Assembly: GCA_964427405.1 (NCBI GenBank) | Contig: CAYRUB010000001.1 | Location: 157,884-221,883, forward strand | Direction: 5' to 3' | Length of the DNA stretch: 64,000 bases | Source: an uncultured Planctomycetales bacterium | GTDB lineage: Bacteria > Omnitrophota > Gorgyraeia > Gygaellales > Profunditerraquicolaceae | Part shown: one piece after another, positions 3,104 through 26,748 of the stretch | Layout: every line of letters starts with the position of its first letter | Numbering within the stretch: the first letter of the stretch is position 1 | The notes under the pieces: generated by a model | Databases searched by the model: none | Seen by the model: only the letters and a program-made list of their open reading frames with translations | Told to the model about the DNA's origin: nothing | Position numbers and translations under genes: made by a program

Positions 3104-3150
3104 GTTTCAAATATACACTATACTGCTATTCTTGTCAAGCTTTTTCTTAT

Positions 3151-3492
3151 CTAATGTTCGCTTGGCAGTATTAAGACGCCATTTTCGAACCATAGATCAA
3201 TCTTATTTATCGGAAAATCCGTCCACTCAATCTTCTCCCGATAGAGCTCATGGTAATTGCCGTCCTCGCACACCAGGACTGCCGATCTATCCTCATTGAC
3301 CTCAAGCTTCCAGGTGCCGAATTCCTGTAAGTTCTTTTTCGCTCTTGTCGTGAGTAGTATCTTATCAATTAGCCAATATGCGCCGCCCACTTGCGCGACG
3401 TATTGAACCCCATCGGTGTAAAGATATCCGCTTAGATGTTTGTACCAATGCTCTGTGCCGCTAAATTGCCTTAATTCATTTACCGTTAACAT
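3151..3492 (-). CDS. DUF6876-like protein (plasmid leading-region-type small protein)
   Basis: Start at MLTVNELRQFSGTEHWY..., which has an AAGGAGGG RBS and the TEHWY/LYTDGV/GAYWL pattern recalled for DUF6876. The ORF-track N-terminal extension is rejected. Confidence 0.4.
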   Translation of the reverse strand: MLTVNELRQFSGTEHWYKHLSGYLYTDGVQYVAQVGGAYWLIDKILLTTRAKKNLQEFGTWKLEVNEDRSAVLVCEDGNYHELYREKIEWTDFPINKIDLWFENGVLILPSEH

Positions 3493-3704
3493 TTTAAACC
3501 CTCCTTGGTAATACAGGAAAAATAGCAGTTCCTGCAATCGTTATTATTTTCACTTGAGCATTTCTCACAAATAGGATCTTTGTCCATAGAAGCTATAGAT
3601 CGTAGCAACAGCTTCTCAACCACCACAGTCATTGGCCTTCCCTGTGCCTGCTTTAACCTATAAAGTGTCTTAATCATTGTTTCGCTTAATATTGGGCTAT
3701 ACAT
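3486..3704 (-). CDS. hypothetical small Cys-rich protein
   Basis: 72 aa, GGAGG RBS, CxxC...CxxC pairs (CEKC, CRNC). Tightly packed with flanking small genes. Confidence 0.3.
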   Translation of the reverse strand: MYSPILSETMIKTLYRLKQAQGRPMTVVVEKLLLRSIASMDKDPICEKCSSENNNDCRNCYFSCITKEGLKC

Positions 3705-3826
3705 TCTTGCCTCGCCTCCTCTGGTTTGCCTGCAACCTCAACCCATAACACGCCATCAATTACCACCCAATCCTGGATTTCGCTCCAGCTTGTTTCCTTC
3801 GTTAATTTGTCCTTTTGTATCCACAT
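3686..3826 (-). CDS. hypothetical 46-aa protein
   Basis: ATG at 3826 preceded by an AGGAGG RBS (MWIQKDKLTKETSWSEIQDWVVIDG...). Below the ORF-track size cutoff. Overlaps the start of the neighbouring gene. Confidence 0.2.
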   Translation of the reverse strand: MWIQKDKLTKETSWSEIQDWVVIDGVLWVEVAGKPEEARQECIAQY

Positions 3827-3839
3827 TTTTCTATTCCTC

Positions 3840-4043
3840 CTATTCTTCGTTAGGAAACATCATCGTAATGACGCCTCCATCGTTTACTACCCAAACCTCT
3901 ACTCCGGCAAACCAGAAAACCTGTAAACTAAGCAGGCTTGGATCATGTTCTTTTCTTGCGTCAACCTGCTGCCAGATTCGTTCAATCTGACCCATGGTTA
4001 ACCTTTCCGATACTTGATCTGTAATCTTTTTGATTTCCTGCAT
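3840..4043 (-). CDS. hypothetical protein (translationally coupled, TAATG overlap)
   Basis: 67 aa. Its ATG overlaps the stop of the upstream gene. GGGAGGTGA RBS. Confidence 0.35.
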   Translation of the reverse strand: MQEIKKITDQVSERLTMGQIERIWQQVDARKEHDPSLLSLQVFWFAGVEVWVVNDGGVITMMFPNEE

Positions 4044-4336
4044 TAGAAATCACCTCCCTCATCAAGCAAATCCTGATGCTTCTCAACAAAAGATTCTAAA
4101 GTTTCAGAACCATTTGGTTTAAAGCCTTTAGCCATAAGTTTATAAACGTTCTTCATTAGATTTCTTTCTTCCCAGAGAGCGGATAAGCCGAATGCCTGCT
4201 CCGGAAGATCCTCTTGATACGTTCTGTATTGAGAATCTCGGCTGCTTTGATACCTTTCCATACAGGCATCCGCGCGTAAGACCCCATCCTCAAATTTTTC
4301 GTTTTTCTTTAGTATTTCTTTTTTTACTTGGCTCAT
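4043..4336 (-). CDS. hypothetical protein, first gene behind leader copy 1 (starts MSQVK)
   Basis: Start at 4336 is fixed by conservation of GGAGG-N5-ATGAGCCAAGTAAAA with the copy at 8158. The upstream part of the 172-aa ORF-track entry is leader, not coding. Confidence 0.45.
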   Translation of the reverse strand: MSQVKKEILKKNEKFEDGVLRADACMERYQSSRDSQYRTYQEDLPEQAFGLSALWEERNLMKNVYKLMAKGFKPNGSETLESFVEKHQDLLDEGGDF

Positions 4337-4700
4337 GTGAGCCTCCTTTCTTTTGACGCCTAAAAATCCAAGCCCAATGATTTGAAGTGATTTCTGAGGC
4401 AAACCACAGAAATCACGGTCTTTTGTCAAGAAAACAGGTAAGCCCGAAAGGAGCGAGCGATAAGCGAGAGAGTTTCCTGGAGTCCTTGAGAAAAATTGAG
4501 ACTCCCCGAAGGGGCAGAATGCTTCTGATACCTTGCATCTTGAGGCAGACCACAAGTGCAAGGTAGAGATGAATTATTCTCAAGGATTTTCTTGCACAAA
4601 AGTCAATCTTGGGCTATTTTTACGGCGGAGAAGAAGAAAGAGGCGTAACTTGAAGACAAAGAAAAACAGAAAAGAAAATTTGAGGATGGAGAGAAAAGCG
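4337..4700 (-). promoter_or_regulatory. structured ~360-nt leader element, copy 1 (novel; RNA leader or ssDNA-promoter-like)
   Basis: About 80% identical to 8159-8525. Hairpins at 4387-4416 and 4529-4565 have stems that differ from copy 2 but stay perfectly paired, with a conserved loop TGG(T/G)(T/C)TGCCT. The 5' segment (about 4634-4643) is complementary to the RBS (4342-4354). Confidence 0.5.
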
Positions 4701-4754
4701 CGGAACCGTGGAAAGGCTGGAATTCTTAGCTATCCGCTCTCTGAAACGCTGCCT

Positions 4755-4949
4755 TTATTTGGGCTGATTTAAAATTTTCTTATTTTCAAACCCCTTTGCC
4801 CGGTATTCGATTATGTGGTAATGAATTGAGCCTTCTGCATCAACGTATCCAAGCGTTATATCAGCCATTTTGATATCGCTGTCCAAAGTCAAGTCATCGA
4901 AGTTTTTAATCTGCCTGTGTAATTCCCTGAACCAGTTATCGACTTTCAT
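4755..4949 (-). CDS. hypothetical protein
   Basis: 64-aa ORF with an AAAGGACGGG RBS. Lies between leader copy 1 and IR-L. Confidence 0.3.
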   Translation of the reverse strand: MKVDNWFRELHRQIKNFDDLTLDSDIKMADITLGYVDAEGSIHYHIIEYRAKGFENKKILNQPK

Positions 4950-4990
4950 ATTTCCCGTCCTTTCTTTTAATTAACTTCTTAAAATTATCT

Positions 4991-5136
4991 ATTACCCCCA
5001 AGCACTTAAAGCTCACGGCGGGCGGTGGCCTACGAGGCGCCTTTTTCAACAACCCTCTCGAAGGCTACCGCACGCCAGTCCCAATCAAAATCCACCAAAC
5101 CACCCAACCAACAAAACCCTTTAATCAGGGCGGGGC
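4991..5136. repeat. 146-bp perfect inverted repeat, left copy (IR-L)
   Basis: Base-for-base reverse complement of 39534-39679. About 55% GC in a ~40% GC context. Ends 19 bp from the JAB gene stop. Confidence 0.9.
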
Positions 5137-5155
5137 GAATTTAGCTAAACTATAC

Positions 5156-5962
5156 TTAGCTTCCGGCTGGTATTTGCAGGCGTCCTTTCTCTTCCGGGTA
5201 ATTCTTGACGTATTTTGCTATTTTTTCGCAGGAAGAACATATATCAGCTCCATTGCAGACTTCGCAAAAAGGAAGCACTCCCTGGATATTTAAGCCAGCA
5301 GTTTGCTTGCAGGTCTTACATTTGAAAGTTTCACACGCCTGACAAGCCAAATACGGCATACCCATGTGAGGACAATTTTCACAATCAGCTGTTTGGCAAA
5401 ATTCACAGGGATTTTCCTCATCTTCAAATTGTGAAGATGCCTCCGGCAATAGCTCTCTTGTTCTTTCGCTTATCTTTGAAAGATCAATCCCGGGCAGTTC
5501 AATTAATTGAAGCTGAATTTTTATATAGCCAAAACCATTACAGGGGAGTTTTATCCTTTTCGTGGCAATGCTGCCTTTTGCATTAGCGATGACGATGCTA
5601 TAAGTATAGAGATTTCTGGCATGGGCGTCGTCTTGCGATGAATGGAACGCCCCCATATCATGGTGCGAATGGATTATCCCGTCTCCTCCTAATTCCTCTT
5701 TGAATTCGCAGTCAACTGAACCTACTTCCTGCTTTGGGATCTTGAAGCTGGTTATGGTGTTATCTTTCACCCAGAATACCGCGCCCCACTCCTTATCCCC
5801 CATGCGCTGGCTGATATAAGTCCATTGACTCCAGATACTCCAGGGTATATTTAGGGTTTCTTTATGGTCATGGTCGCTGCAAAAGCCGCATTCACCGTAA
5901 TTCTTTATCTTTACATCTAAAATATTGCTTCTCTTTTCTGTAGCTTGCTCTAAAGTAAACAT
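5156..5962 (-). CDS. JAB/JAMM (MPN+) metallopeptidase with C-terminal multi-CxxC zinc ribbons
   Basis: HSHHDMGAFHSSQDD matches the JAMM motif HxHx7Sx2D exactly. The tail carries more than 6 CxxC pairs (CEFC, CENC, CQAC, CKTC, CEVC, CSSC). Confidence 0.8.
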   Translation of the reverse strand: MFTLEQATEKRSNILDVKIKNYGECGFCSDHDHKETLNIPWSIWSQWTYISQRMGDKEWGAVFWVKDNTITSFKIPKQEVGSVDCEFKEELGGDGIIHSHHDMGAFHSSQDDAHARNLYTYSIVIANAKGSIATKRIKLPCNGFGYIKIQLQLIELPGIDLSKISERTRELLPEASSQFEDEENPCEFCQTADCENCPHMGMPYLACQACETFKCKTCKQTAGLNIQGVLPFCEVCNGADICSSCEKIAKYVKNYPEEKGRLQIPAGS

Positions 5963-5963
5963 T

Positions 5964-6890
5964 TTATTTCCCTCCTTTCGCTTTTAGCCATTTTTTAAGG
6001 GCTTCCAACAGTTTTGAATCGGTGATTTCTCCTGTTTCAATCTCACAAATTATCCAGTCATATTCATTATTCTTTGCTTTTTCTTTTATATCTTTTATCT
6101 CATCATCGCTGTAATGTTCATCACAATCAGGGCAGTATCCGTAATCAGAGCCGTCAGGATCAATCCTTGAGCAGTCTTCACAGTAACCATAACTGTCAGG
6201 TATGTGTTCTTCGATGTTATCCAGGATGTTTCCTTCGCCTTCGTTTCTTGCGTCATCTAGGATTTTGGGGCAGATATGAGTTGAGTGCTGGATATGAAGT
6301 TTTCCCAGATCATCCATAAGGCAAAGTTCCTTGTATGCCCTTGAGGATATTCCTGCCGCAGCTGCAAGCACTGCCGGTATTACCCAGGAAGGCGTTACTG
6401 TATAACCCTGTTCTTCTTCTGCATCCTTCAAGGAAAGCGGGAATGTCTTTGAGACATTCAAGATTGTACCGTCATAGCCTATTCTCTGGTAGTTAAGATC
6501 ATTCTTCTTGCAGAAAGCACATATTATCTGCTGGCTTTTTAAATTATCCGTGCAGCAGAATATGTCGCCTCGCAAAATCTGGCAGTCTATTGGCTTTTCA
6601 ATACGTGAATCCTGAATCTCAATCCTTATTCCTTTTCTCACCTGGCAGATGAGTTCTTTCAAGGCTTCCGCTTTCTTTTTGCCGACAGCTTTTTCTTCTA
6701 AGAGAAGCCTGTTCAAGTTGGATACTTCAACTATGTCAGAATCAATTAAAATCAACTCTTCTACTCCTGACATAGCAAGAAGAAGCGCAGTCCAGAAGCC
6801 TGTCCCGCCACAACCGACAATTGAGGCGATTTGCGGAATATTTAAACCTTCTACTAAGTTCTGTCTTTCGTAAATAGCAAGTTCTGGCAT
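5964..6890 (-). CDS. ThiF/MoeB-type E1-like adenylyltransferase
   Basis: IVGCGGTGFWTALLLAMSGVEELILIDSDIVEVSNLNRL is the Rossmann/adenylation motif. C-terminal CEDC...CPDC zinc site. No rhodanese domain. Confidence 0.85.
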   Translation of the reverse strand: MPELAIYERQNLVEGLNIPQIASIVGCGGTGFWTALLLAMSGVEELILIDSDIVEVSNLNRLLLEEKAVGKKKAEALKELICQVRKGIRIEIQDSRIEKPIDCQILRGDIFCCTDNLKSQQIICAFCKKNDLNYQRIGYDGTILNVSKTFPLSLKDAEEEQGYTVTPSWVIPAVLAAAAGISSRAYKELCLMDDLGKLHIQHSTHICPKILDDARNEGEGNILDNIEEHIPDSYGYCEDCSRIDPDGSDYGYCPDCDEHYSDDEIKDIKEKAKNNEYDWIICEIETGEITDSKLLEALKKWLKAKGGK

Positions 6891-6902
6891 ATTTCTTCTC
6901 TC

Positions 6903-7499
6903 CTATATGATTGACTCAATTAAACCCTCATCGCTTAATTCTTTGAATTTGCACAACACATCTTTGTCTTTATTTGACAAAATGTTCCAAAGAGTTGAGT
7001 ATGTCTTAGGCAGGATCACAGTACCCAAAGATTCAAGGTTTATAACCCGGAACGACTTGATTATTTTTAGACAGGCTTCCTTTAAAAGCCCTAAGGATTC
7101 AGGATTAAGGTATTGGATTTCACCGGTGCAGATGGTGTGCCCCTTATCGGTCAATCCAAGATAGTGAAAACCTATCTCCGGTTCTGATACAAAAGCTATA
7201 AAGCAGCCTCTCTGGTCATAGATGCCGTAAATCTTAAAGGGATAGTATTTGATAGGCGTCTTTAGAAAATAGGTTTTATCCTTATAATAAAGCTTGTCTA
7301 TAAGCAGGAGGCCAGAATAGCCCTCTATAAGCATATCGTCTTCCTTTATCATGCAGCTATAGCCTCCGGTAAAGGGAACCGTAAAGATGCCTTCCTTCAG
7401 GCCTTGGACAAATTCCCGCCAAGAGGTATCAATTTTTTCGATAAGGGTTGATTTCTTTTTAGCTTTAACGATCAATTCTGTATCCATCATTGCTTTCAA
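6903..7499 (-). CDS. putative E2-like (UBC-fold) protein
   Basis: 198 aa between the Ubl and E1 genes. HYLGLTDKGHTICTGE resembles the E2 H-x-N...G-x-I-C active-site region. AAAGGAG RBS. The assignment rests on motif and position only. Confidence 0.35.
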   Translation of the reverse strand: MKAMMDTELIVKAKKKSTLIEKIDTSWREFVQGLKEGIFTVPFTGGYSCMIKEDDMLIEGYSGLLLIDKLYYKDKTYFLKTPIKYYPFKIYGIYDQRGCFIAFVSEPEIGFHYLGLTDKGHTICTGEIQYLNPESLGLLKEACLKIIKSFRVINLESLGTVILPKTYSTLWNILSNKDKDVLCKFKELSDEGLIESII

Positions 7500-7560
7500 G
7501 CTCCTTTAAGCTTTAAGAGAGGGAGAAAAAGTTTCTCTCCCTCTCTTTTTAGCTTTTTTT

Positions 7561-7797
7561 CTAGCCGCCTGCTTTGACGTATCTTTCCACTTCGATATCG
7601 TGGCCGTCAAAGGTCGCAGGCAGGTTGTCGGTAGAGGTAACCTCTTCGCCGTCTACCAAGATGGTAAAGGAGTCAATGCCTTTTTCCTGCAAGAGGCGGG
7701 TTAAGGTGTCCTTTACGGCATCGCCCTTTTTTACCTCGAGCTCTTCTCCTGCTATTGTTATCTTTGTCTTTTCGTTTTTCAGTTCGTTTAAGTTCAT
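7561..7797 (-). CDS. ThiS/MoaD-like ubiquitin-like beta-grasp protein ending in Gly-Gly
   Basis: 78 aa. ...ILVDGEEV...FDGHDIEVERYVKAGG* has the typical ThiS/Ubl core and a C-terminal diglycine immediately before the stop. Confidence 0.7.
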   Translation of the reverse strand: MNLNELKNEKTKITIAGEELEVKKGDAVKDTLTRLLQEKGIDSFTILVDGEEVTSTDNLPATFDGHDIEVERYVKAGG

Positions 7798-7855
7798 TTT
7801 GTTCTGTCTTTCTCCCCGTATAGCCGATAGGACAGCTTTTAATTTTTAAATTCTT

Positions 7856-8158
7856 TTAAGCCTGGTAGGCTGCAAGAACCACTTCTTGCAATTCATTTTT
7901 TGCCTCAGGCGTTAAGAATTGGACGGTATCGTAATACTTACCGTCGCCAGCTAAATGGGATGGCATAGCTGCGAACAGCCCGCCCTCTTTTTTAGCCATG
8001 ACCCTGATGCCTTTGATTAAAACCGCGTCAGCGACTTTAATGTCAACAAAGGCCTTCAGGGAGCTTTCGTCTTTTTCGACTTTATAAACTCTGGCCACTT
8101 CAATCATGGTTTTCACCTCCTTTCGATTTGTTTTTTGTTTTGTTTTTACTTGGCTCAT
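7856..8158 (-). CDS. SpoVG-like protein, first gene behind leader copy 2 (starts MSQVK)
   Basis: IRVMAKKEGGLFAAMPSHLAGDGKYYDTVQF resembles the SpoVG core (IRVIDG..GLFVAMPS..DG..RDI..P). The N-terminal 17 aa are an extension that begins with the leader-encoded MSQVK. Confidence 0.55.
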   Translation of the reverse strand: MSQVKTKQKTNRKEVKTMIEVARVYKVEKDESSLKAFVDIKVADAVLIKGIRVMAKKEGGLFAAMPSHLAGDGKYYDTVQFLTPEAKNELQEVVLAAYQA

Positions 8159-8525
8159 GTAAGCCTCCTTTCTTTTGACGCCGGAAATTAAAACCCAAGA
8201 ATATGAAGTATTTTTCCAGGCAGCCCAGAAAAATACGGTCTTTTGTCAAGAAAACATGGAATGCCCGAAGGCAAACGACGCAAGGAGTGAACCTTCCTGG
8301 GAGTCCTTTGGAAAAATTGAGACTCCCCTATAGGGGCAGAATGCTTCTGATAGCTAAAAAGCCTTTCCGAGGCAGACCACGAAAAGGCTTTTTAGATAGA
8401 GATGAATCTTCCCAAAGGATTTTCTTGAAAAAAGTCAGGATTGGGTTATTGTAGGCGGATAAAAAGAAAGGAGGATTACGTGACGACAAGAGAAAACAAA
8501 AGACAAGGAAGGAAGTAACTGATTG
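8159..8525 (-). promoter_or_regulatory. structured ~370-nt leader element, copy 2 (novel)
   Basis: Hairpins at 8208-8236 (GTATTTTTC/GAAAAATAC) and 8356-8393 (AAAAAGCCTTT/AAAGGCTTTTT) carry the conserved TGGNNTGCCT loops. The 5' segment 8462-8474 AAAAAGAAAGGAGG region is complementary to the RBS region 8164-8182. A CCCC-TATA-GGGG hairpin plus T-run lies mid-element. Confidence 0.5.
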
Positions 8526-8712
8526 AAGTAGCGATTAAGGGTAGCTAAAAGATAAAACGGACTGTGAAATTTTTCTTAGCTGAATTAGAAGACCGAAAAA
8601 TATATATATTCTGGGTAGCTGAAATTGAAAGGAAGACATCACCTTGAAAGTTGAAACGATTGAAGAGTTTGTTAAAGCACCAAAGGTAAGACCTGCCGAC
8701 TTACGGATCTAC

Positions 8713-9366
8713 TTATCCTTGAAATTGACTCTGCTTGTACTCAGACTGGAAATATATTAATGGGACTATCCGCATAGCTTCAAGGATCTTTGGTCCGTGG
8801 CATTTTTTAAGCCTTTTTCCCGAATTGCATGGGCATATCTTATCTCGACTATATTCTCCAGAGGCTAATATTTTAAGAAATTTCTGAGCAGCAGTAAAAT
8901 CATTGGTATTAAAGAACTCACAATAAAATTCTATAACCCCTCGTCCATAATGTGAGCGCTCACCAAACGGCATATGGCCTGTTTTTTTATTGAAACAAAA
9001 GGAGAAAAGAAACGGAATCACTAAAAACTCAACAAATCCAATAAGGGTTTTACATTTACTGAATTTTATCCAATTATCTACTGGCGTGCCTAAACATAAT
9101 GTATCGTTTGTGTAATGATGAAAATCGCTCGGTATCCTTCCCCCCATTTCTTTAACTGAGGGCATCAGATCTGGGTAGCTAGACGGGATCGCGATGAATA
9201 ACTCAAAACCATCTTGGATTCTTACTTTTTCGAATTCGGAAGAAAAACCCAGGAAACCAAAAATATAATAATTATCATCGATATGCTTAAGGCTCAAACC
9301 TGTATATTTCTCATGAAGTTCTTGAAATTGTTTCTGAATAATATCGTCATAACCAATACTCGCCAT
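8713..9366 (-). CDS. E2-like protein with C-terminal SEC-C zinc motif (CBASS Cap2-short-like)
   Basis: Start at MASIGYDD (9366), overlapping the CD-NTase stop by about 20 nt. FHHYTNDTLCLG resembles the UBC HPN...C active site. The C-terminal CPCNSGKRLKKCHG is a SEC-C motif. Confidence 0.45.
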   Translation of the reverse strand: MASIGYDDIIQKQFQELHEKYTGLSLKHIDDNYYIFGFLGFSSEFEKVRIQDGFELFIAIPSSYPDLMPSVKEMGGRIPSDFHHYTNDTLCLGTPVDNWIKFSKCKTLIGFVEFLVIPFLFSFCFNKKTGHMPFGERSHYGRGVIEFYCEFFNTNDFTAAQKFLKILASGEYSRDKICPCNSGKRLKKCHGPKILEAMRIVPLIYFQSEYKQSQFQG

Positions 9367-10546
9367 TGCTGCTCCATGGTTTCGAAGGACTAATTTTAAC
9401 CTCAGGGTAAGATTGCGCAGAAGGCGTTTTCTGGTTACTAGTTCTATAGCCACATTTCTCGAGGACCTTCCCCATGGTTTTAATACCGAATATAACACCC
9501 AGGTACTCAATCATATCCTTAGTTGATGTTTTTGTTAGAGCCTCCTGCAAGTCTTTTTTAATCTTTTTCAACCAATCATAAAAGCTTTTCTCAAGCACAG
9601 GATCATCTAACCATTTATCTGCAAAGTTTTCATCTGGTTCAACAGGATTTCTTATAACTGTTTTAGTCCCATTTTTTTCGATATGTTTATCCATATTATC
9701 TACTATACGTATTAATGCATCAGCTAACCCTAATTCATTTTGATACGCGTGCGCCGCCAAGGTGGTTATAATCATCGAAGTCGGCTTGATCTTAAAATCT
9801 TTTTCGAACATAATATCACGGTGCCGCTTAAGAAGCTGAATAGTTTTCTGTAAGGGAGTTCTAACTTTGTAAACAGGAACGGCTTCTATTGAAGCATATA
9901 AGCGCTTTTCAAGAAGAGATATAGCCCCTTTCTCAAAAATGGTTCTCATTCTAAACTTGAACCATTCTGCATACCCCTTAGGATTAGTTTTTAACCAATT
10001 ATCGTCAATACGATCATAATTACCCAATGTATTATCGGTAAGACAAATACTTGTCTGCAGTAAATTCTCCCTTATTCCTGATTCAAGCAAATGTTTTTTG
10101 TAGGGCACATCTTGCTCTGGAATAGAAGCTAAAAAATCCATATGGAAATGAACATCATCTTCATATTCAATTCTCCAGCAACGTCTTTTATTCTCGGGCT
10201 TACTCTTCATATTTTTAGCAAGAGAGTAATCAGTTAACTCCTTACCGATTTTTTCCTTTAAGTCTTTTTGTGAAATCTCATTTTTAAGATAATTTAAACA
10301 ACATACCAAGTCAATATCATATCTGTCTTCTTCTGATGCAGGTCTAACTGTAGTTCCCAAAAGAAATGAACCTTGCGTATATATTTCAGGATTTCGATCT
10401 TTTAATGATGTACTCTCCTGTAACCACTTTGTTACCGATTCATATCGAAGTCTCGCTTCTTCAAATTGAGAATCGGAAATCTTTAAGGAATCCGCATATT
10501 TCTCTAATACATCATCCAATAATGTCATGCGATTATCTTGCATCAT
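9347..10546 (-). CDS. cGAS/DncV-like nucleotidyltransferase (CD-NTase) of a CBASS system
   Basis: QGSFLLGTTVRPASEEDRYDIDLV gives the GS...hDhD nucleotidyltransferase active site. A third acidic residue lies at HMDF. 399 aa. Confidence 0.8.
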   Translation of the reverse strand: MMQDNRMTLLDDVLEKYADSLKISDSQFEEARLRYESVTKWLQESTSLKDRNPEIYTQGSFLLGTTVRPASEEDRYDIDLVCCLNYLKNEISQKDLKEKIGKELTDYSLAKNMKSKPENKRRCWRIEYEDDVHFHMDFLASIPEQDVPYKKHLLESGIRENLLQTSICLTDNTLGNYDRIDDNWLKTNPKGYAEWFKFRMRTIFEKGAISLLEKRLYASIEAVPVYKVRTPLQKTIQLLKRHRDIMFEKDFKIKPTSMIITTLAAHAYQNELGLADALIRIVDNMDKHIEKNGTKTVIRNPVEPDENFADKWLDDPVLEKSFYDWLKKIKKDLQEALTKTSTKDMIEYLGVIFGIKTMGKVLEKCGYRTSNQKTPSAQSYPEVKISPSKPWSSNGEYWL

Positions 10547-10547
10547 T

Positions 10548-11483
10548 CTAACCTCCTGTGTTATAATCCAAGAATTCTTGGATTTTTTGTGAATTATTTG
10601 TAAAATCTTTTTCTGCTAAAAAGACTAAGTTATTGTACTCATTAGGATCATCTAACTTTAAAGGTTTAGCTGATTTAAAATTAATTCTTAATACCTGATT
10701 TTCCTCAAATAAAAGCTTAAGCATGTTGGTAGTTGTTTGAGACTGCAAGCTAAGAAGCATACCAATAAATTTTTGTCGACCCCACCTTGCCAAGAATCCC
10801 CATCCTAAGAACTTTTTCCACCATCGGTCTGACTGCGAATAGAAATTTTCCCCTTCGCCTGTGCCAATTGACAAAATCATTAGATTATTTATATTCTGAC
10901 CAAGACGACGCTTAGCTTCAATAGCCGCAATAAGAGCCGGATTATTTGCCCATAATCCTCCATCTGCTAAAAGAAAATTATCCATATAATAAGGATCAAA
11001 ATAGGTAGGGGCGGAACAAGAAGCCAATACTGCTTTATAGACTAGTCTATTAGGATCACGAGAAAAATTTTTATCGTACGAAGATTTAAACACATGAACG
11101 CAGCCATTCCCGATATCAGATGCAGGCAAAACTAAAGGTATGTCAATTTGGCCTAGCTTTCGATCATCACCATAGAGATTTCTTAAGATGTTTTCTAAAT
11201 CCTTATTATCATATCTGCTCACGAATAATCCAAACCAATGAAGAAATCGCTTCTTGAAGATCCGTTGACCATATTCCTTATAAAAATCTAATACTTTACT
11301 CGCAGTAAAGTTACAAGCTAATGATGCCGCGATGATTGCTCCTGTACTAGTTCCGGCTATTAGATTAAAACTTTTTAACCAATCAACACTATATTCTTCC
11401 TCAATGCGTTTTAATATATAAGCTGCATAAACACCACGATAACCACCACCGTCGATTGCTAAAATTTTAAATATTTTATCCAT
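10548..11483 (-). CDS. patatin-like phospholipase (CapV-type CBASS effector)
   Basis: DGGGYRG oxyanion motif, GTSTG nucleophile elbow and DGG catalytic Asp. Sits directly upstream of, and 2 nt from, the CD-NTase. Confidence 0.85.
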   Translation of the reverse strand: MDKIFKILAIDGGGYRGVYAAYILKRIEEEYSVDWLKSFNLIAGTSTGAIIAASLACNFTASKVLDFYKEYGQRIFKKRFLHWFGLFVSRYDNKDLENILRNLYGDDRKLGQIDIPLVLPASDIGNGCVHVFKSSYDKNFSRDPNRLVYKAVLASCSAPTYFDPYYMDNFLLADGGLWANNPALIAAIEAKRRLGQNINNLMILSIGTGEGENFYSQSDRWWKKFLGWGFLARWGRQKFIGMLLSLQSQTTTNMLKLLFEENQVLRINFKSAKPLKLDDPNEYNNLVFLAEKDFTNNSQKIQEFLDYNTGG

Positions 11484-13681: not shown

Positions 13682-14317
13682 TTACTCCTTCCTTAAATTA
13701 GGTATAGTTGCTATAACAACACCTTGAATCTGAAAATCATCAGTTAAAATAATTGGTTTGTTTTTTTTATTGGAAGATTTTGGCTTTAAAATAATCATAT
13801 TGGGAGCGAGGTGAAACTCTTTAATTGTCGCCTCGCCATCAATTAATGCAACAACTTTATCTCCTTCATTAGCTGTTGGCTGCTGTCTAACTAACACAAG
13901 ATCGCCTTCATTAATTCCTGCTTTATCCATCGAATCTCCTCGCGCATGCAATAGATAATATTTTGCCCCTGGCTTTGCGAGAGAAGTAGAAACAGAAATA
14001 AACCCTTCTATATTTTCTTCTGCCAACATTGGTGCCCCACAAGCTACAACGCCAACCAAAGGAATATTAATGGTTTGAGCATGCATAGAACCAAGATCTG
14101 GATTCAAAACGAGGTGATAATCTCCGTCTTCAAGCTTTTTTATCACACCTTTTTCTTGAAGTTGCTCAAGAATAACCTGAATTGACCGGGGTGATTTGTA
14201 ACCAAGATCAACCATCAATTCCCTAATAGAAGGAGCTCGAGAACGATGCATAAGCCAATTTCTAATATGACGGATAGCCTCGATTTGCCTTTTTGTAAAC
14301 GTATTTTCGTTCTTCAT
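13682..14317 (-). CDS. lexA: LexA repressor (S24 self-cleaving peptidase)
   Basis: N-terminal wHTH, VVACG cleavage-site-like motif, ARGDSM and GDLVLV...K catalytic Ser/Lys motifs. Confidence 0.85.
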   Translation of the reverse strand: MKNENTFTKRQIEAIRHIRNWLMHRSRAPSIRELMVDLGYKSPRSIQVILEQLQEKGVIKKLEDGDYHLVLNPDLGSMHAQTINIPLVGVVACGAPMLAEENIEGFISVSTSLAKPGAKYYLLHARGDSMDKAGINEGDLVLVRQQPTANEGDKVVALIDGEATIKEFHLAPNMIILKPKSSNKKNKPIILTDDFQIQGVVIATIPNLRKE

Positions 14318-14353
14318 ACATACAAGTGTATACTACCGTATGTATTTTGTCAA
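14316..14353 (-). promoter_or_regulatory. lexA promoter with overlapping inverted repeat (candidate SOS operator), leaderless start
   Basis: Minus strand TTGACA(14353-14348)-17 nt-TACACT(14330-14325), then ATG 7 nt later. ATACATAC-N14-GTATGTAT inverted repeat (14316-14345) overlaps the -10 and the start codon. Confidence 0.4.
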
Positions 14354-14667
14354 GTAAAACAAACACCCAACAGAAGCAATATCGTTTGAATTATATTTGA
14401 TAGAATTATTTAGTTTAATAAAATTCGCTTCTAGTAATGCAGACTTGGGGATAGGCGTAAATAACTATACTCTCAGTTCGCAGAAGATAAAGTCTATACT
14501 AAGCCTTACTCTTAAGACTGCTACAAACCGAACAATGATTTTGTAACCTTGCTACTTCTTCATTATAAGCTTTTCTAAATTCAGGATTCTTTAAAGACTC
14601 TTCATCGATATGCTGGCTTACTGTTTTGGGAATCATTCTTTTTCTTTTTTTAGATTGTGGTTGCATC

Positions 14668-15408
14668 TTATCCAGCAAGATTACGTTCAATCTCTGCTAT
14701 TAGTATCTTTGGAAACCCCTTTATAATCATATGCTGATTGACAGGAAGAAAGGTTTTAAGCTCTTGTCTGAAATCAATCCTCCCGGATTTGACAACCTTT
14801 AGAATCTTTGCCTTTAATTGTTTATCCTGTATAAATACTTCCTTAAAGGCCATGCGGCTACGAAGAATAAAATAAAGATCGTAGAAATCCCGCGCCTTTT
14901 GGCGCGTAAGACAGGCTTGGATTTTTTCGGTAATAAGAATCTCTTCTTTAAGATGAATAAGCGTATAGGACACAACAAGGTCGGATTGGATGAGTGCCGC
15001 TGCCCCTAACCCCTTTTTACCAGGCCGTAAAGAAACCTCTACTTGAATCCGGCTTTTATACTCACTAGTATTAAACTGGAATATAGCGAGGTATCCGCCG
15101 GATGTACTTTTTGACTCAATAATCTCAGTTTGGATACCTTCCATTTCTATCTTAGTAAGGGCTCCTTCCATTAGGGTTTCGATACCTTTGATCGTAATAT
15201 TTACTCCGGTAAAATCTAAATCTTCCGAGAACCGCGGACTCTGCCAAATGATCCGCAATGCAGTGCCTCCCTTAAAAAGCAGACTATCGGAACCCTTTTC
15301 CTGATAAAGCCGAGAAAGAAACAGCTGCTGAAAATATTCCCGCACGACATTATCTATTGTCGTCTGCCATGTTTGAGCTAACTTTTGAACTTGTCTTTTT
15401 TCAATCAT
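14668..15408 (-). CDS. AbiEii/AbiGii-family nucleotidyltransferase toxin (type IV TA), possibly C-terminally truncated
   Basis: LFKGGTALRIIW...SEDLDF motifs. At 246 aa it is short for the family. Confidence 0.7.
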   Translation of the reverse strand: MIEKRQVQKLAQTWQTTIDNVVREYFQQLFLSRLYQEKGSDSLLFKGGTALRIIWQSPRFSEDLDFTGVNITIKGIETLMEGALTKIEMEGIQTEIIESKSTSGGYLAIFQFNTSEYKSRIQVEVSLRPGKKGLGAAALIQSDLVVSYTLIHLKEEILITEKIQACLTRQKARDFYDLYFILRSRMAFKEVFIQDKQLKAKILKVVKSGRIDFRQELKTFLPVNQHMIIKGFPKILIAEIERNLAG

Positions 15409-15998
15409 AAGATATCCTTAACCAGTTTTATCAAGCCCTTTTTGCCAAAAAGTTTTGCATATTCTATTACAGATTTTTTCTTTATGTCGCGGACATTAAG
15501 ACGCTCATTAAGAGTTTTTCGATTAAGACTAACAAAATAAAGGTAATCTGCGAGGGCCTTTTCCGGTTCGGCCATAAGAACAGTCATATCCCCTATCTTC
15601 TCTGTTCTATAGCCGCGATAAGCTGGTTTTTTAATGTGTGAATAAGTAAAAGACTTATTATTAACAACAAATTCCCGGGTAATCCGGGTTGTCACTGATG
15701 TTATTGTGTAAGCGAATTCAGGAATAATGCCATAATGGGAGAGGGCGTATTCAAAAGAGATGTAACTAGGCGCATAAAGCCTATTGGCAATAGCTTCATC
15801 TCTTGGCTGGTCAATTCTTAACGCATAAAGCCCATTTCTTACTTTAAGAAAAAGGTCATCGCAGTGATCCTTAATAAACTCCTGCGTCGCACGCAAAGAG
15901 ACACCAAAAACTCTCTGGAAGTCCGATGGAGAAAACAAACGGACTCCTTTCGCCTGAAGATGCTGCTGGACATATATTGGTTTAAGTTTTCGCTCCAT
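15405..15998 (-). CDS. AbiEi-family antitoxin/transcriptional regulator
   Basis: 197 aa, 4-nt overlap with the toxin gene. N-terminal wHTH-like region typical of AbiEi partners. Confidence 0.65.
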   Translation of the reverse strand: MERKLKPIYVQQHLQAKGVRLFSPSDFQRVFGVSLRATQEFIKDHCDDLFLKVRNGLYALRIDQPRDEAIANRLYAPSYISFEYALSHYGIIPEFAYTITSVTTRITREFVVNNKSFTYSHIKKPAYRGYRTEKIGDMTVLMAEPEKALADYLYFVSLNRKTLNERLNVRDIKKKSVIEYAKLFGKKGLIKLVKDIL

Positions 15999-16075
15999 AT
16001 GACGCTAAATGTTAAATGGGTATCTGGAGCGATTATACCTCATCTTTTGAGTTATGCAAGCCTTTTTTGGGTCAT

Positions 16076-17502
16076 TGTCAAGCCAAAATAGAAATGTCCG
16101 GTTCTTACCAAAATAGAAATGTCCGGTTTTAAACCTTTACCAAAAGAGCTTCATGCTGCGCGCTCTGCCGCAATCGCAGAGCCTCATACATCTGCCGTTT
16201 AAAGGGATGATCCATGGGCGGACGGTACATTTCCCGTTTTATCGGCTTAGATTCCCGTTCGATCACCGGCTTAATGGTAATCGGCTTATACGTCAAATAG
16301 CGATTATTGCCAAAAATCAACATGGTACCGTCAATACGCTCTTCAAGAATAACCTTGCGGCCGGGATTCCTGTCTTTAATCTGGTACAGCTTCTTTTTGT
16401 AAGCAATGGTAAAGTCATTACGGACTACCCTCTCGGTCTTAATACACAAGATTGTATTTAAATTGATGCCCGCCGGTACCGGCCGGTGCATATCTGTTGA
16501 GTCTGCCGGAAGCACGGCAAACCGCTTATTATGCTTCGGCCAGTAACTCTTTAAGAACATATTGGCCTCGGGTATAGACTTAATCCCCGCTAATCGCAGC
16601 TCTTTAACCAGGCGATCCTGATCCGTCTTAAAAGAACGCTCGATCCTGCCTTTGGCAGGAGCTGAATGCGCATGGATTACTCGTATATCCAGCTCCCCGC
16701 ATGCCCTCTCAAACTGGCTAAGATTGAACCGATTATTCAACTCATCTTCTATCGTTTGCCTCTGCCGGCCTGTATATGTTGAATGCCGATCAACGCGTAT
16801 ATGCTTTGCGGCAAGCCGTTCTCTTTAATATAATCCAATAACCCCGCAAACGCAGGCAGTGTTCCTTCGTGTTTATAAAAAGATCCACTCTTGTTACTTG
16901 TGGCATCGTCAATATACCCCATAAGAACACACTCCTCTGCCCTGCCTTCAAGCCAGGGATGATGCGATCCGTCCATCTGCAGCATCTCTCCGCGGTAATG
17001 TTTTCGCTCCCGCCAATGCCGATATTTGCGTGAGGCCCGTTTGCGTTGCCACAATCCTTCTGCAATAAGCTTCTTGCGTAACGTCTCGTCGCTTATCGTA
17101 ATCTTGTGCCGTTCAAAGAGCTTCTCAGAGGCAAACGTCGGCCCAAAATCGCGGTATATCCTCCGGTATAGACTCAGGATCTTCTCCCATGCCCTGCTGG
17201 TTATCCGCCGTTTGGATGCCTTCCCGCGCAATCCATGCACCAAACCTTTTTCGCCTTCGGCTCGATAATGCACCGTAAGCCGCCGTATCTGACGCTCACT
17301 CAAGCTAAGTTGCTCACCGGCTTCTTTTTGTGTCAAAGAACGTTCTAAAACTTTACGTATAATATGTACCCGATTCAGTTCCTTCTGGCTCATCTGTACA
17401 ATGTCCTCTCCCATGCTTAACCTCCCTTAAGAAGGTTACCATGGTTTTGTTAACAGGACATTCTTACTTTGGCCAAATAGGACATTATCACTTTGGTATT
17501 AC
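16076..17502 (-). mobile_element. ISNCY-like insertion sequence flanked by 17-bp direct repeats
   Basis: Flanking direct repeats AGCCTTTTTTGGGTCAT at 16059-16075 and 17503-17519. Each end carries two tandem ~21-nt repeats (CCAAAATAGAAATGTCCGGTT x2 at left; inverted CCAAAGTGATAATGTCCTATT / CCAAAGTAAGAATGTCCTGTT at right). Confidence 0.7.
16129..17414 (-). pseudogene. DDE transposase (HTH + integrase core) split by a frameshift into 221-aa and 203-aa ORFs
   Basis: N-terminal part 16749-17414 (MSQKELNRVHIIRKV... HTH). C-terminal part 16129-16740 (integrase-core-like). The parts are in different frames and would join to about 430 aa. Confidence 0.5.
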
Positions 17503-20979: not shown

Positions 20980-21807
20980 TTATGAGATTTTCATAATGAA
21001 GCAAAGGGCGTAATACGGCGGCAGTATGTTATGCGGCTGACCTCCACCCATGCTGCTGGTATTTGAAACTTGTGTTCCAGTACATAAAGGAGAACTGTGT
21101 CCATCATACCTGCTGTAGAATGTAGGTTCATTGTAAGCATGTGAATGTGCAGGCATCTCAACAATAGTTAAGATATGTTTTGCCTCTCCTCCAATCTTAG
21201 TTAATGAACCGGAAACATTCGTCATTGAAATACCACCTGAATCCTGCCTTGCTCCCACCACAAACCTGTCCCTTAAATCAGGGGTGCCATTCGTGCCATC
21301 GCAGAGCTGCCAGCCTGCAGGTATGGAAGCAACAGTACCTGGCCAGATAACGATTGAACCTATGGGGAGAGAATTATTTTGACTACCGGGTACAGGCACA
21401 GTGGTGCCGACAATAACGCCTGATACAGAAGTAGTAGGCAGGTCTCTTGCCACAAGATTAGTCCACTCTTGGGGCACAGTGGTTGATACCGTAAAAGCGC
21501 TTGTGTTTGAGGAAATAGTGTAAGCATTCTGCCAGGGATTAAAAGCACTCCAAGAAGGATTTAAGTATCCTGCGTTTTGTAAAACCTGGATACTCGCGGG
21601 CCAGGCGTTGTTAGTTGCGTAATACGATAATGCCGCCTGCTCTATTGTTGACATCTCAAGAGCAGTCTTTTCCCCAGCTTTAATCTGCATTCTTTTAATA
21701 AAGACAGGCGTAATGGATGAGGTTAGAATGACCAAAACCCCAAGAGCAATACAGAGCTCAATAAGGGAAAAACCCTTTTTATTGTTTATAGATGTATTTT
21801 TTCTCAT
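20980..21807 (-). CDS. prepilin-type N-terminus fused to phage tail-collar (MdpB-like) domain
   Basis: KKGFSLIELCIALGVLVIL is a class III signal with a methylation motif. C-terminal WPGTVASIPAGWQLCDGTNGTPDLRDRFVVGA is the tail-collar signature. Confidence 0.6.
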   Translation of the reverse strand: MRKNTSINNKKGFSLIELCIALGVLVILTSSITPVFIKRMQIKAGEKTALEMSTIEQAALSYYATNNAWPASIQVLQNAGYLNPSWSAFNPWQNAYTISSNTSAFTVSTTVPQEWTNLVARDLPTTSVSGVIVGTTVPVPGSQNNSLPIGSIVIWPGTVASIPAGWQLCDGTNGTPDLRDRFVVGARQDSGGISMTNVSGSLTKIGGEAKHILTIVEMPAHSHAYNEPTFYSRYDGHSSPLCTGTQVSNTSSMGGGQPHNILPPYYALCFIMKIS

Positions 21808-22668: not shown

Positions 22669-22687
22669 TGCTCTCACCTCCTTTCTC

Positions 22688-25537: not shown

Positions 25538-25538
25538 T

Positions 25539-26676: not shown

Positions 26677-26748
26677 AGGTTTCTTAATTTAGAGGGTGAA
26701 CCAGCGGATCAAAAAAATAATCCGGCTGGTTCACGCCTTTTAGTTTGA

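Follow-up and report, generated by a model that had tools for sequence, protein, structure and literature searches.

Genes and repeats at one end of an integrated conjugative element

The window (the whole 64,000-nucleotide stretch of DNA that was analysed) contains an F-type transfer gene set that lies on one strand throughout (TraH, TraF, TraU, TraC, TrbI, TraE) and further holds a coupling protein, a MobC-like relaxase (38745-39518) and TraG_N. At one end of this integrated conjugative element (ICE), two small operons are each preceded by a copy of a repeat. The two copies, at ~4322-4659 and 8144-8490, share a common architecture of ~340 nucleotides, and the genes are on the minus strand:

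8144..8490, plus strand: copy 2 of the repeat (nhmmer match; DNA fold; inverted repeats I2, I4, I9-I11, I22)
4322..4659, plus strand: copy 1 of the repeat (nhmmer match; DNA fold; architecture as in copy 2)
7856..8158, minus strand: SpoVG-like gene, behind copy 2 (Pfam SpoVG, 1.2e-17)
5156-7797, minus strand: genes after the SpoVG-like gene, for a ubiquitin-like protein, a 198-aa protein, a ThiF-type E1 and a JAB peptidase
4043..4336, minus strand: 97-aa gene, behind copy 1 (family nearly confined to Omnitrophota; 129 homologue clusters)
3151-3495, minus strand: DUF6876 gene, which with small ORFs follows the 97-aa gene at the element end

In the operon behind copy 2, Pfam matches were obtained to ThiF (2.3e-23) and Prok-JAB (1.2e-06), and the 97-aa protein and its neighbours have no match in Pfam, PADLOC, PHROGs or NCBIfam. 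The neighbouring CBASS genes, which an earlier note on this DNA had linked to the repeat, are cargo particular to the window and are absent from related elements with the same repeat, and this link is not supported.

The repeat forms a single branched hairpin

The two copies are 83% identical over ~440 aligned columns, and the blocks of 18-22 nucleotides that are identical between them are unique to the two within the window. In each copy a long imperfect stem encloses side hairpins whose own stems are wholly different, while their tips retain TGGNNTGCCT. The plus strand serves as template for the gene downstream, and in copy 2 it forms a single long, branched hairpin (-72.7 kcal/mol as DNA; z = -10.65 against shuffled sequence), around which weaker complementarity reaches 8118-8509. 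The plus-strand DNA fold of copy 1 has -78.1 kcal/mol (z = -10.40), and the minus-strand RNA folds of the two copies have z = -7.5 and -6.7, again against shuffled sequence. A large stable stem-loop of one DNA strand upstream of an operon, as is expected of single-stranded-DNA (ssDNA) promoters, is therefore present. The sequence features listed in the earlier note were all found once the sequence was read in the sense of the genes, all of which are on the minus strand. The separate hairpins it described do exist, but they are not independent, being branches of the single ~340-nucleotide hairpin:

8208..8236, plus strand: hairpin B of copy 2, with tip AGGCAGCCCA (TGGGCTGCCT on the minus strand)
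4387..4416, plus strand: hairpin B of copy 1, with tip AGGCAAACCA
8354..8395, plus strand: hairpin A of copy 2, in the apical domain, with tip AGGCAGACCA at 8370-8379 (inverted repeat I3)
4529..4565, plus strand: hairpin A of copy 1, with tip AGGCAGACCA at 4543-4552
8325..8349, plus strand: apical hairpins of copy 2, CCCC-TATA-GGGG (8325-8336) and CAGAA-TGC-TTCTG (8337-8349), helices 9 and 10

The stems of hairpin B differ between copies yet pair, as had been noted (GTGATTTCTG/CAGAAATCAC at 4387-4416 versus GTATTTTTC/GAAAAATAC at 8208-8236); those of hairpin A, at 4529-4565 and 8354-8395, are likewise unrelated, and the loop motif common to the four hairpins was recovered, the loops being TGGTTTGCCT, TGGTCTGCCT, TGGGCTGCCT and TGGTCTGCCT. 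On the template strand the invariant tip reads G-AGG-YANN-CCN-C, and each copy has two to four such hairpins. Hairpin B occurs in 21 stem variants across homologues with its tip conserved, and in divergent copies the CAGAA-TGC-TTCTG hairpin is swapped for a longer hairpin bearing the conserved tip. A sigma-54 reading of TGGNNTGCCT was rejected for its wrong spacing when the sequence was read directly.

The mid-element CCCC-loop-GGGG hairpin with its T-run is present at 8325-8336, but it is not a terminator, because the T-run begins 9 nucleotides past the stem and the terminator scan made no call. One terminator-like candidate, hairpin B of copy 2, was set aside, its T-rich tail being unconserved.

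Conservation and covariation of the structure

Forty-two copies of the repeat were found in Omnitrophota genomes and metagenomes, and the gene after each is either SpoVG-like or the 97-aa gene. Relative to this gene, the repeat has one orientation throughout the 42. As many as six copies occur within 8 kb (L037), and repeated copies are spaced 1-4 kb apart, each before a separate operon. No match was obtained by blastn of the repeat against a collection of 72,556 PLSDB plasmids, and two exact-word scans of viral contigs gave nothing but one chance match (L009). Matches in GC-rich genomes (L002, L003, L007) were also chance matches. A miniature transposable element was rejected because copies are found only before two gene families and in one element family, and a hok-like type I toxin mRNA because the ORF is outside the structure.

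Covariation was assessed over 78 base pairs in 36 distinct homologues, with 500 shuffles and slid controls. Paired cells make up 97.7% of the total in this set. Double-sided changes occur in 32 of the 78 pairs, compared with 15.3±2.3 in shuffled alignments; none of the 500 shuffles reached 32 such pairs, and the slid controls gave 6-13. In hairpin A, helices 11 and 12 show double-sided changes at 9 of 13 pairs. The compensatory stem changes first seen between two copies therefore hold in a wider alignment, and the structure is conserved and selected.

Folding favours the template strand

When both strands were folded with identical DNA parameters, the template strand had the more stable fold in each of the 36 copies, by a mean of -10.3 kcal/mol; with RNA parameters it was more stable in 33 of 36 (mean -15.7). 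In folds that disallow wobble pairs, mismatches that read A·C on the mRNA strand and G·T on the template occupy 42 cells in 18 contexts, and those that read G·T on the mRNA strand occupy 20 cells in 4 contexts. The consensus fold likewise has 78 pairs on the template strand versus 54 on the mRNA strand. Part of the asymmetry, ~7.5 kcal/mol, persists without wobble pairs, so base composition contributes to the strand difference; a wobble-free consensus fold was too sparse for use (29 pairs).

Frpo1 and Frpo2 of the F plasmid served as a positive control. Their template strand is favoured by -10.9 and -12.2 kcal/mol, respectively, and their mismatches are A·C on the mRNA strand only, the same signature as in the repeat. 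The folding strand is in each case the template strand of the downstream genes, as in ssDNA promoters.

Candidate promoter boxes within the stem

A promoter scan of copy 2 matched TTGAAA-16-TATTGT. The elements concerned in the two copies are:

8425..8430, plus strand: candidate -35 box TTGAAA of copy 2, on the 3' arm (non-template arm) of the folded plus strand
8447..8452, plus strand: candidate -10 box TATTGT of copy 2, on the same 3' arm
8244..8249, plus strand: tgtcaa, the complement of a perfect TTGACA and the template-arm partner of the -35 box
8179..8184, minus strand: predicted transcription start of copy 2, from which the RNA would begin ~GGCGUCAAAAGAAAGGAGG, ~25 nucleotides before the AUG
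4592..4620, plus strand: candidate promoter of copy 1, TTGCAC (4592-4597), a 17-nucleotide spacer and TATTTT (4615-4620)
4357-4362, minus strand: predicted transcription start of copy 1, the counterpart of 8179-8184

Every one of the 42 copies, divergent ones included (TTGATA-16-TATACT), has on its 3' arm a TTGNNN, a spacer of 16-17 nucleotides and a TATNNT, which is TTTACT in two of them. CTTG at the -35 box is invariant; at the -10 box T, T and the final T are invariant and A is found in 40 of the 42. The spacer between the boxes diverges (e.g., GTCAGGCTTGGGT versus ATCAAACGCGCGG). On the opposite arm the tgtcaa block is nearly invariant in the family, with TGTTTTCTTGACAAAAGACCGT identical in both window copies, and TTGACA is preserved in the divergent copies and in each of the 30 main-family copies that extend to this position. 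The TTG is paired with probability 1.00 in copy 2 (family mean 0.99), and the family mean for the -10 box is 0.78. Boxes are thus found in the stem at promoter spacing and pointing towards the gene, as in ssDNA promoters. The predicted starts were placed ~7 nucleotides past the -10 box and mapped onto the paired template arm.

The boxes are modest (typically TTGCAC and TATTGT), and we estimate that a minimal match would arise by chance in about one arm in seven; support for a promoter therefore rests on the pattern of conservation. They were judged as sigma-70-type boxes, a consensus that may not be Omnitrophota's own. In duplex drawings of copy 2, hairpin B branches off the template arm within the -35/-10 spacer, an awkward geometry that counts against an ssDNA promoter. 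The same simple box pattern had no match in the transferred strand of F Frpo. A mirror promoter on the mRNA strand (perfect TTGACA with TTTAAT/TATATT) was discarded, as its spacer is ~21 nucleotides plus hairpin B and its -10 box is unconserved.

Predicted masking of the ribosome-binding site

The base of the stem takes in the translation start of the downstream gene:

8156..8171, minus strand: Shine-Dalgarno sequence (SD) AAAGGAGG (8164-8171) and start codon ATG (8156-8158), within the stem base
8461..8474, plus strand: AAAAAGAAAGGAGG on the distal arm, whose minus-strand complement CCUCCUUUCUUUUU would mask the ribosome-binding site (RBS) in read-through RNA

The complementarity between the 5' end and the RBS segment to which the earlier note had drawn attention is real: 8155-8176 pairs with 8462-8483 (22 nucleotides, 91% complementary), and past the RBS weaker pairing extends into the first codons (8118-8152 with 8487-8509). 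The predicted probability that the SD of copy 2 is unpaired is 0.00 in the read-through leader versus 0.71 in the short transcript; for copy 1 the values are 0.17 and 0.69. Given the positions of the boxes, the predicted transcript has a short leader with the RBS free. Pairing between the RBS and the distal arm would silence read-through transcripts, so a role at the RNA level is plausible as a secondary effect.

Element layout and the transferred strand

In the window and in two related contigs (L040/L043) the repeat-bearing module is at the far 3' end of a co-directional gene array, and the co-directional 5' end of the array, with the relaxase, recurs in two others (L044 and L045). If the element is laid out like F, the module would enter the recipient first, with the template strand being transferred. 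DUF932 is encoded within the module of related elements and also in the F leading region. Direct repeats at the element ends and inverted repeats near the relaxase gene were sought, with nothing convincing; no oriT or nick site was found, so we infer the transferred strand by analogy with F.

One related contig (L038) conflicts with the canonical layout, in that its module is divergent from the relaxase and coupling-protein genes. Were oriT at that junction and the relaxase last to enter, the coding strand would be transferred there. The junction truncates a conserved 90-aa gene, a second contig (L037) has the same junction, and a third (L039) ends there; the junction may therefore be a rearrangement or an assembly branch point.

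A candidate single-stranded-DNA promoter

With moderate confidence, we propose that each copy is an ssDNA promoter of the Frpo/ssi kind, belonging to a new, non-homologous class in an Omnitrophota ICE. The earlier note had named such a promoter as an alternative; it is now favoured by the strand bias and the conserved boxes, while its placement on the leading-region strand is by analogy. We assume that the plus strand, on which all the genes are templated, is the one transferred. Once single-stranded, the ~340-nucleotide repeat would snap into its long imperfect hairpin, and the stem would recreate a sigma-70-type promoter, the 3' arm giving the non-template TTGNNN, 16-17-nucleotide spacer and TATNNT, and the 5' arm giving the template, including the exact complement of TTGACA. 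RNA polymerase would initiate ~7 nucleotides past the -10 box, near GGCG, and proceed down the stem into the gene, producing an mRNA with a ~25-nucleotide leader and an open RBS. Upon synthesis of the complementary strand, hairpin and promoter would vanish. A read-through transcript from upstream would hold both arms, and its RBS and start codon would be buried. The predicted outcome is a brief burst of expression from the first operons entering the recipient.

Two features are not required by the ssDNA-promoter model, namely the conservation of the hairpin tips and the extension of the stem over the RBS and first codons. In a broader version, which we regard as possible yet doubtful, the repeat would be a two-state switch, acting as a promoter in ssDNA and as a translational lock in read-through RNA, and the hairpins would be a new ssDNA recognition module for a protein encoded directly downstream, the SpoVG-like or the 97-aa protein, whose binding might time early-gene shut-off or recruit priming.

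Alternative explanations

The earlier note had leaned towards a cis-regulatory RNA, and of this reading the conserved structure and the RBS pairing are borne out. The repeat would then be a structured mRNA 5' leader (a riboswitch, a protein-controlled leader or a thermosensor) of an operon transcribed from an upstream double-stranded promoter, its RBS hidden by long-range pairing until a ligand or a tip-bound protein opens the stem. The burial of RBS and start codon in the stem base (probabilities of 0.00 and 0.17 in the full leader), the significant fold of the minus-strand RNA, and, on the mRNA strand, a GCC-UUCG-GGC hairpin and a T·G wobble by the hairpin A tip, both conserved, are in keeping with it. 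Since orientation is fixed in 42 of 42 copies, it also holds whichever strand is transferred, the layout of L038 included. The strand evidence fits it less well: A·C predominates among the mismatches tolerated on the mRNA strand (18 contexts versus 4 of G·U), the opposite of what folded RNAs show, and the mRNA strand is the less stable in every one of the 36 copies and has the fewer consensus pairs. At Rfam gathering thresholds the repeat has no match, the only matches in the window being c-di-GMP-I and TPP riboswitches elsewhere, and at E <= 1 the repeat region gave only a chance match to mir-208. Furthermore, no terminator is conserved, no promoter-like site is seen in the ~220 nucleotides separating the upstream gene and the repeat, and a perfect anti-SD of 13 nucleotides would be hard to open, alternative pairing not being evident. 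We consider an mRNA leader unlikely.

A rather unlikely explanation is a regulatory sequence of establishment genes like EGeRS1 of pLS20, which would insulate the operons from upstream transcription, contain no promoter itself and be switched on by some factor, possibly element-encoded. The repeat matches EGeRS1 in size, position, branching and repetition, and its tips are conserved in the manner of protein-binding sites. Against this, the repeat is similar to no PLSDB plasmid sequence and is not GC-rich (0.42-0.44 versus 0.415 for the element), whereas EGeRS1 exceeds its plasmid in GC content; the repeat also has a conserved -35/-10 pair, and the pLS20 authors saw no promoter in the folded form. 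Because the mechanism of EGeRS1 is itself unsettled, this reading also explains little.

The strand asymmetry, which points to a DNA strand and not to mRNA, would also suit a single-strand initiation site that serves complementary-strand synthesis only, at which primase or RNA polymerase is recruited, the hairpin tips are recognition elements for primer making and gene expression is incidental. Several hairpins with a conserved tip resemble the primase recognition origins of single-stranded phages. Frpo itself was first known as a priming signal, as related in PMC12672017. We find this reading quite improbable, as the repeat is always in register with the RBS and start codon before one of two gene families, six copies within 8 kb exceed the needs of priming, and no primase gene was recognised among the scanned ORFs of the element.

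An antisense non-coding RNA from the plus strand, which would fold and repress the gene by pairing with the RBS region, accords with the better fold and G·U-compatible variation of that strand and with a promoter-like TTGACG-16/17-AAKRAT at the gene-proximal end (4353-4381, 8175-8202), but is very improbable: TTGACG is lost in L012, L019, L027 and divergent copies, the final T of the -10 is absent in many copies, the transcript would lack the arm required for the long stem, and a conserved terminator is missing from the far end. The same site as a promoter of the gene, which would mean transcription around the whole hairpin, was rejected for the same losses of TTGACG and of the final T.

Implications of a proposed ssDNA promoter in Omnitrophota

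To our knowledge, the ssDNA promoters with measured activity are all from enterobacterial plasmids. If the repeat is indeed an ssDNA promoter, expression before second-strand synthesis would be a general solution in conjugation that reaches uncultivated Omnitrophota. It would also provide a sequence-independent search recipe (a long hairpin, a one-strand wobble bias and T-A-T-x-x-T on the 3' arm), by which the transferred strand and the leading region could be inferred where oriT is not known. The two predicted activities suggest that one palindrome may work as a compact natural switch, a promoter in ssDNA and an RBS lock in read-through RNA, and the conserved tips may point to a so far undescribed binding partner.

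Comparison with known systems

Several non-homologous classes of ssDNA promoters are known (PMC12672017, PMC13478746). Frpo1 and Frpo2 of F, which form class 1 together with ssi1-3 of ColIb-P9, resemble the repeat in that their template strand adopts an imperfect hairpin of ~330 nucleotides; such a hairpin was obtained on folding the transferred strand of F Frpo2, a validated element. Like the repeat, they are near-identical copies a few kb apart (~5 kb in F), each before an operon of small genes, and the -35 and -10 boxes are recreated in the stem (PMC9849209). The genes are all co-oriented with the transfer genes, and the signature of strand stability is the same. Frpo was originally described as a signal for priming, and primer RNA is made from it (Masai and Arai 1997, cited in PMC12672017). 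The hosts differ, the repeat being in an Omnitrophota ICE and Frpo on an enterobacterial plasmid, and no homology to Frpo/ssi was seen, as the F leading region (L036) gave no match to an nhmmer profile of the repeat at E <= 10. The stem base of the repeat takes in the RBS and start codon, whereas the F stem ends ~50-60 nucleotides upstream. Unlike Frpo, the repeat bears two to four side hairpins whose tip is conserved, and one of these lies within the promoter spacer. Unlike known ssDNA promoters (PMC13478746), it is not GC-rich, and its activity is predicted.

The class 2 and class 3 promoters (pESBL, F; ssp2; upstream of klcA, ardA and M.EcoGIX) are defined by function and fold and not by homology: a big stem-loop upstream of a leading-region operon rebuilds -35 and -10 boxes (PMC12672017, PMC13478746). 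The repeat has the same computed features of stem-loop and boxes. No homology between them and the repeat was detected by blastn in the plasmid collection. Their transcription starts were mapped by 5' RACE and their induction was seen in transconjugants, whereas the activity of the repeat is a prediction from sequence.

EGeRS1 of pLS20, of ~325 nucleotides, is found immediately upstream of the RBS and has a predicted branch with four ramifications; it stands before five operons, lacks a constitutive promoter and stops read-through in a single orientation (PMC8708921). A branched repeat of about this length directly before the RBS of several operons is what we find here; neither sequence homology to EGeRS1 nor a raised GC content was seen in the repeat. 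EGeRS1 blocks expression by upstream read-through (PMC8708921), and the repeat is predicted to do likewise, via masking of the RBS. The two differ in the strand concerned: pLS20 transfers the non-template strand, whose fold showed no promoter, whereas in the repeat the template strand is favoured and carries conserved boxes.

Repeat copies, their genes and their relatives

ORFs of any size are all encoded by the minus strand of the window, and the segment first flagged (8159-8525) and its sister (about 4337-4665) are located upstream of two minus-strand genes:

7856-8158, minus strand: SpoVG-like gene behind copy 2 of the repeat (Pfam SpoVG, 1.2e-17)
4043-4336, minus strand: 97-aa gene without family match, behind copy 1

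The two copies are 83% identical and have exact blocks of 18-22 nt in common that are absent elsewhere in the window; the likeness takes in the Shine-Dalgarno sequence, the ATG and the five initial codons (MSQVK). The SpoVG-like gene, in the window (8100-8158) and in three loci fetched for comparison (L004, L006, L008), has two in-frame starts with GGAGG before each. The first (MSQVKTKQKTNRKEV) is part of the repeat, its Lys-rich codons being an outer extension of the stem, and the second (MIEVARVYKV) is the usual SpoVG start. The family of the 97-aa protein (window 4043-4336), found behind most copies, had no match in Pfam, PADLOC, PHROGs or NCBIfam; its acidic tail, DLLDEGGDF, is reminiscent of the tip with which SSB proteins end.

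One exact-pattern scan of genomes returned five copies, in Omnitrophota assemblies and one assembly labelled Planctomycetales, and one metagenome scan returned 26 loci, all 26 genuine. A profile search of the fetched DNA added further copies, among them a divergent type that scored about a third as high. The family totals 42 copies, and the promoter arm is distinct in 36. The register relative to the gene, which is SpoVG-like or of the 97-aa family, is identical in every copy. Six copies lie inside 8 kb of a 337-kb comparison contig (L037, 2160-10030). These six carry two to four tip-bearing hairpins each and have a small operon behind each, with SpoVG-like genes behind three, the 95-aa family behind two and a 45-aa ORF behind one. 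The 97-aa family comprises 129 clusters, the named ones nearly all from Omnitrophota. The window flanks are syntenic with an Omnitrophota assembly, and the host of the element is therefore an Omnitrophota bacterium.

One long hairpin under selection

The earlier observation of a structured repeat is confirmed: hairpins A and B have stems unrelated between the two copies, all four TGGNNTGCCT loops were found, and the ribosome-binding site pairs with the distal end. The hairpins are all part of one structure, a long imperfect hairpin of about 340 nt that each copy forms over its whole length. From it branch a pair of side hairpins bearing the conserved tip, a pair of small apical hairpins and a single small GC hairpin. 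The CCCC/GGGG hairpin is not a terminator. Against shuffled controls, z was -10.6 and -10.4 when the plus strand of the two window copies was folded as DNA, and -7.5 and -6.7 when their minus strand was folded as RNA.

Covariation was assessed on a 36-sequence alignment, with 500 shuffles and with pairing partners slid by 1-3 columns as controls. The consensus fold has 78 pairs, and 97.7% of cells are paired. Changes on both sides occurred in 32 of the 78 pairs, compared with 15.3±2.3 in the shuffles (none of 500 reached 32) and 6-13 with slid partners, which upholds the compensatory stem changes claimed at the outset. The stem exists in 21 versions in hairpin B and in 20 in hairpin A, and the tip is retained in all of them; divergent copies have a longer hairpin with an identical tip in place of one small apical hairpin, and one copy has two tip-bearing hairpins at the B position. 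The tip-bearing hairpin is thus a reusable module, present two to four times per element. On the template strand the tips (e.g., 8370-8379 and 8218-8227) have the sequence GAGGCA, similar to the GGAGGC in the ribosome-binding site of the gene itself; their mRNA-strand sequence, UGCCUC, could pair with that site.

The template strand is the better-folding one

Both an RNA leader and a folded single-stranded-DNA promoter had been proposed in the earlier note, and a comparison of the two strands separates an mRNA leader from a DNA signal. With the same DNA parameters applied to both, the template (plus) strand was the stabler in all 36 copies (mean difference -10.3 kcal/mol); with RNA parameters it was the stabler in 33 of 36 (mean -15.7). 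Each sequence was also folded with wobble pairs forbidden, and the symmetric mismatches were then read. A·C on the mRNA strand, equivalent to G·T on the template strand, occupied 42 cells in 18 sequence contexts, compared with 20 cells in 4 contexts for mRNA-strand G·T. From the identical alignment, the consensus fold reached 78 pairs on the template strand versus 54 on the mRNA strand, and G·T was seen in 26 and A·C in 11 of the template-strand pair columns, versus 13 each on the mRNA strand.

The experimentally validated promoters Frpo1 and Frpo2 of plasmid F served as positive control. Their transferred strand was stabler by 10.9 and 12.2 kcal/mol, and their mismatches of the G·T/A·C kind were 100% A·C on the mRNA strand. 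Base composition contributes to the energy difference between strands in the repeat, since about 7.5 kcal/mol of it persists without wobble pairs; the mismatch counts are independent of this effect. In both strand stability and mismatch bias the repeat behaves like Frpo and unlike a folded mRNA; of the two proposals, the RNA leader fits less well.

A candidate promoter in the stem

When the template strand is folded, its 3' arm leads from the apex down to the base, towards the gene, and hence is the non-template strand for transcription into it. This arm contains the candidate boxes:

8425-8452, 3' arm of copy 2: candidate promoter TTGAAA-16-TATTGT, also called by a promoter scan
4592-4620, 3' arm of copy 1: candidate promoter TTGCAC-17-TATTTT

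The pattern TTGNNN, 16-17 nt, TATNNT is found in 42 of 42 copies, counting TTTACT as the second box in two of them; the divergent type has TTGATA-16-TATACT. Aligned, the 36 distinct arms show no change in CTTG or in the T, T and final T of the second box. The second-box A is present in 40 of 42 copies, and the spacer differs over much of its length, as do the middle two bases of the box; this is how information is distributed in a -10 hexamer. On the other arm, the template one, a block that hardly changes within the family contains the exact complement of TTGACA. The boxes are both in duplex (mean pairing probability 0.99 for TTG and 0.78 for the -10 box), and the following 7 nt are looser (0.61). 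Two further candidate promoters were set aside for weaker conservation or poor geometry.

Transcription would start about 7 nt past the -10 box, at GGCG in the template arm (8179-8184 in copy 2 and 4357-4362 in copy 1), and would give an mRNA leader of about 25 nt. The Shine-Dalgarno sequence is predicted to be open in this short RNA (unpaired probability 0.71 and 0.69) and closed in the RNA read through the whole repeat (0.00 and 0.17). Hairpin B leaves the template arm about 5 nt past the -35 box, within the spacer, which sits awkwardly with the promoter model, and the conserved tips play no part in it. Most likely, the repeat represents a putative class of single-stranded-DNA promoter that is new in sequence and belongs to a conjugative element of Omnitrophota, a promoter reading that we hold with moderate confidence; the same repeat most likely also provides a predicted built-in translational lock on read-through RNA, together with a hairpin-tip module for which the model does not account.

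The conjugative element and its layout

The genes for transfer are:

17.5-41.2 kb: F-type mating apparatus (TraH, TraF, TraU, TraC, TrbI, TraE, TraG_N, coupling protein)
38745-39787 region: candidate relaxase, a 257-aa replication-relaxation protein of the MobC family (Pfam and NCBIfam below threshold; 164 homologues)

Housekeeping genes lie on both sides, which makes this an integrative conjugative element spanning about 3.1-41.3 kb; an oriT was sought in the element and not found. The candidate relaxase has a D...ExK-like motif; in all cases an overlapping 87-90-aa ORF stands before its gene and the coupling protein gene after it. A gene set for a type IV pilus (20980-29715: secretin, PilB-like ATPase, PilC-like protein and three prepilins, one PilS-like) lies inside the mating cluster, arranged as for the thin pilus of IncI plasmids.

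A 5.4-kb module (3140-8590), 76-82% identical in five other loci, contains both repeats, the SpoVG-like gene, a ubiquitin-like/E1/JAB operon, the 97-aa gene, small ORFs and DUF6876; its end adjoins a fur gene in the window and in L032. The operon (5156-7797), located after the SpoVG-like gene and under copy 2, encodes a 78-aa ubiquitin-like protein with C-terminal GG, a 198-aa protein without family match, a 308-aa ThiF-type E1 and a 268-aa JAB peptidase; this conjugation set in a putative leading module is conserved in L016, L028, L031, L032, L034 and L040. DUF932 occurs in related modules, as in the F leading region, and DUF6876 is common on plasmids, in one case adjoining a ParB-like gene.

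Directly upstream of copy 2 is a CBASS (8713-11483: patatin phospholipase, oligonucleotide cyclase, E2-only protein). Related elements lack CBASS at this position; it is therefore variable cargo specific to the window, and a functional link to the repeat is not supported. Between cargo and mating genes (13682-17414) are a LexA/UmuD-like S24 peptidase gene, an AbiEii toxin gene, preceded by a 197-aa ORF without family match (possibly an antitoxin), and an insertion-sequence-like ORF pair. The chromosomal flank carries, on the minus strand, c-di-GMP-I (56225-56304, 66.1 bits) and TPP (57355-57468, 58.0 bits) riboswitches, unrelated to the repeat.

The genes all run in one direction in the window and in a complete related element (L040 and L043, on one contig), with relaxase and mating genes first and the module last; L044 and L045 have the same co-directional 5' end. 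An excisionase-like gene follows the module in L040 and L041, the latter also with a serine recombinase. In contig L038 the module is divergent from the relaxase and coupling-protein genes, and the coding strand would be transferred if oriT is at the junction and the relaxase enters last. This junction cuts the conserved 90-aa gene that usually precedes the relaxase gene; beyond it the sequences of L037 and L038 are the same, on the other side they differ, and a third contig (L039) ends there. Upstream of one repeat copy, 149 nt of the 90-aa gene are left (L038 9100-9650; L037 9159-9307; start of L039). The junction is a rearrangement, recombination or assembly branch point, not the canonical form.

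Comparison with known systems

Plasmid F has its leading-region and tra genes all in one orientation, with the transferred strand as their template (PMC9849209, PMC11541004). The window element shows this gene layout, and if it behaves like F, the module would enter the recipient first, with the plus strand incoming. Among known systems, the repeat resembles the establishment-gene repeats EGeRS1 of pLS20 in size, branching, place before the ribosome-binding site and predicted block on read-through (PMC8708921); in pLS20, however, it is the non-template strand that is transferred, and a promoter was not seen. Closest to the repeat are the Frpo/ssi (class 1) promoters, known from F and ColIb-P9, and the newer class 2 and class 3 single-stranded-DNA promoters, known from pESBL and F. 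The repeat has no sequence similarity to Frpo or to the plasmid collection. Class 2 and 3 promoters have no sequence in common with class 1, and what identifies them is a large hairpin before leading-region operons in which -35 and -10 boxes are rebuilt (PMC12672017, PMC13478746). The repeat shows the same computed features, a large hairpin with rebuilt -35 and -10 boxes before an operon, and it bears the strand signature of Frpo.
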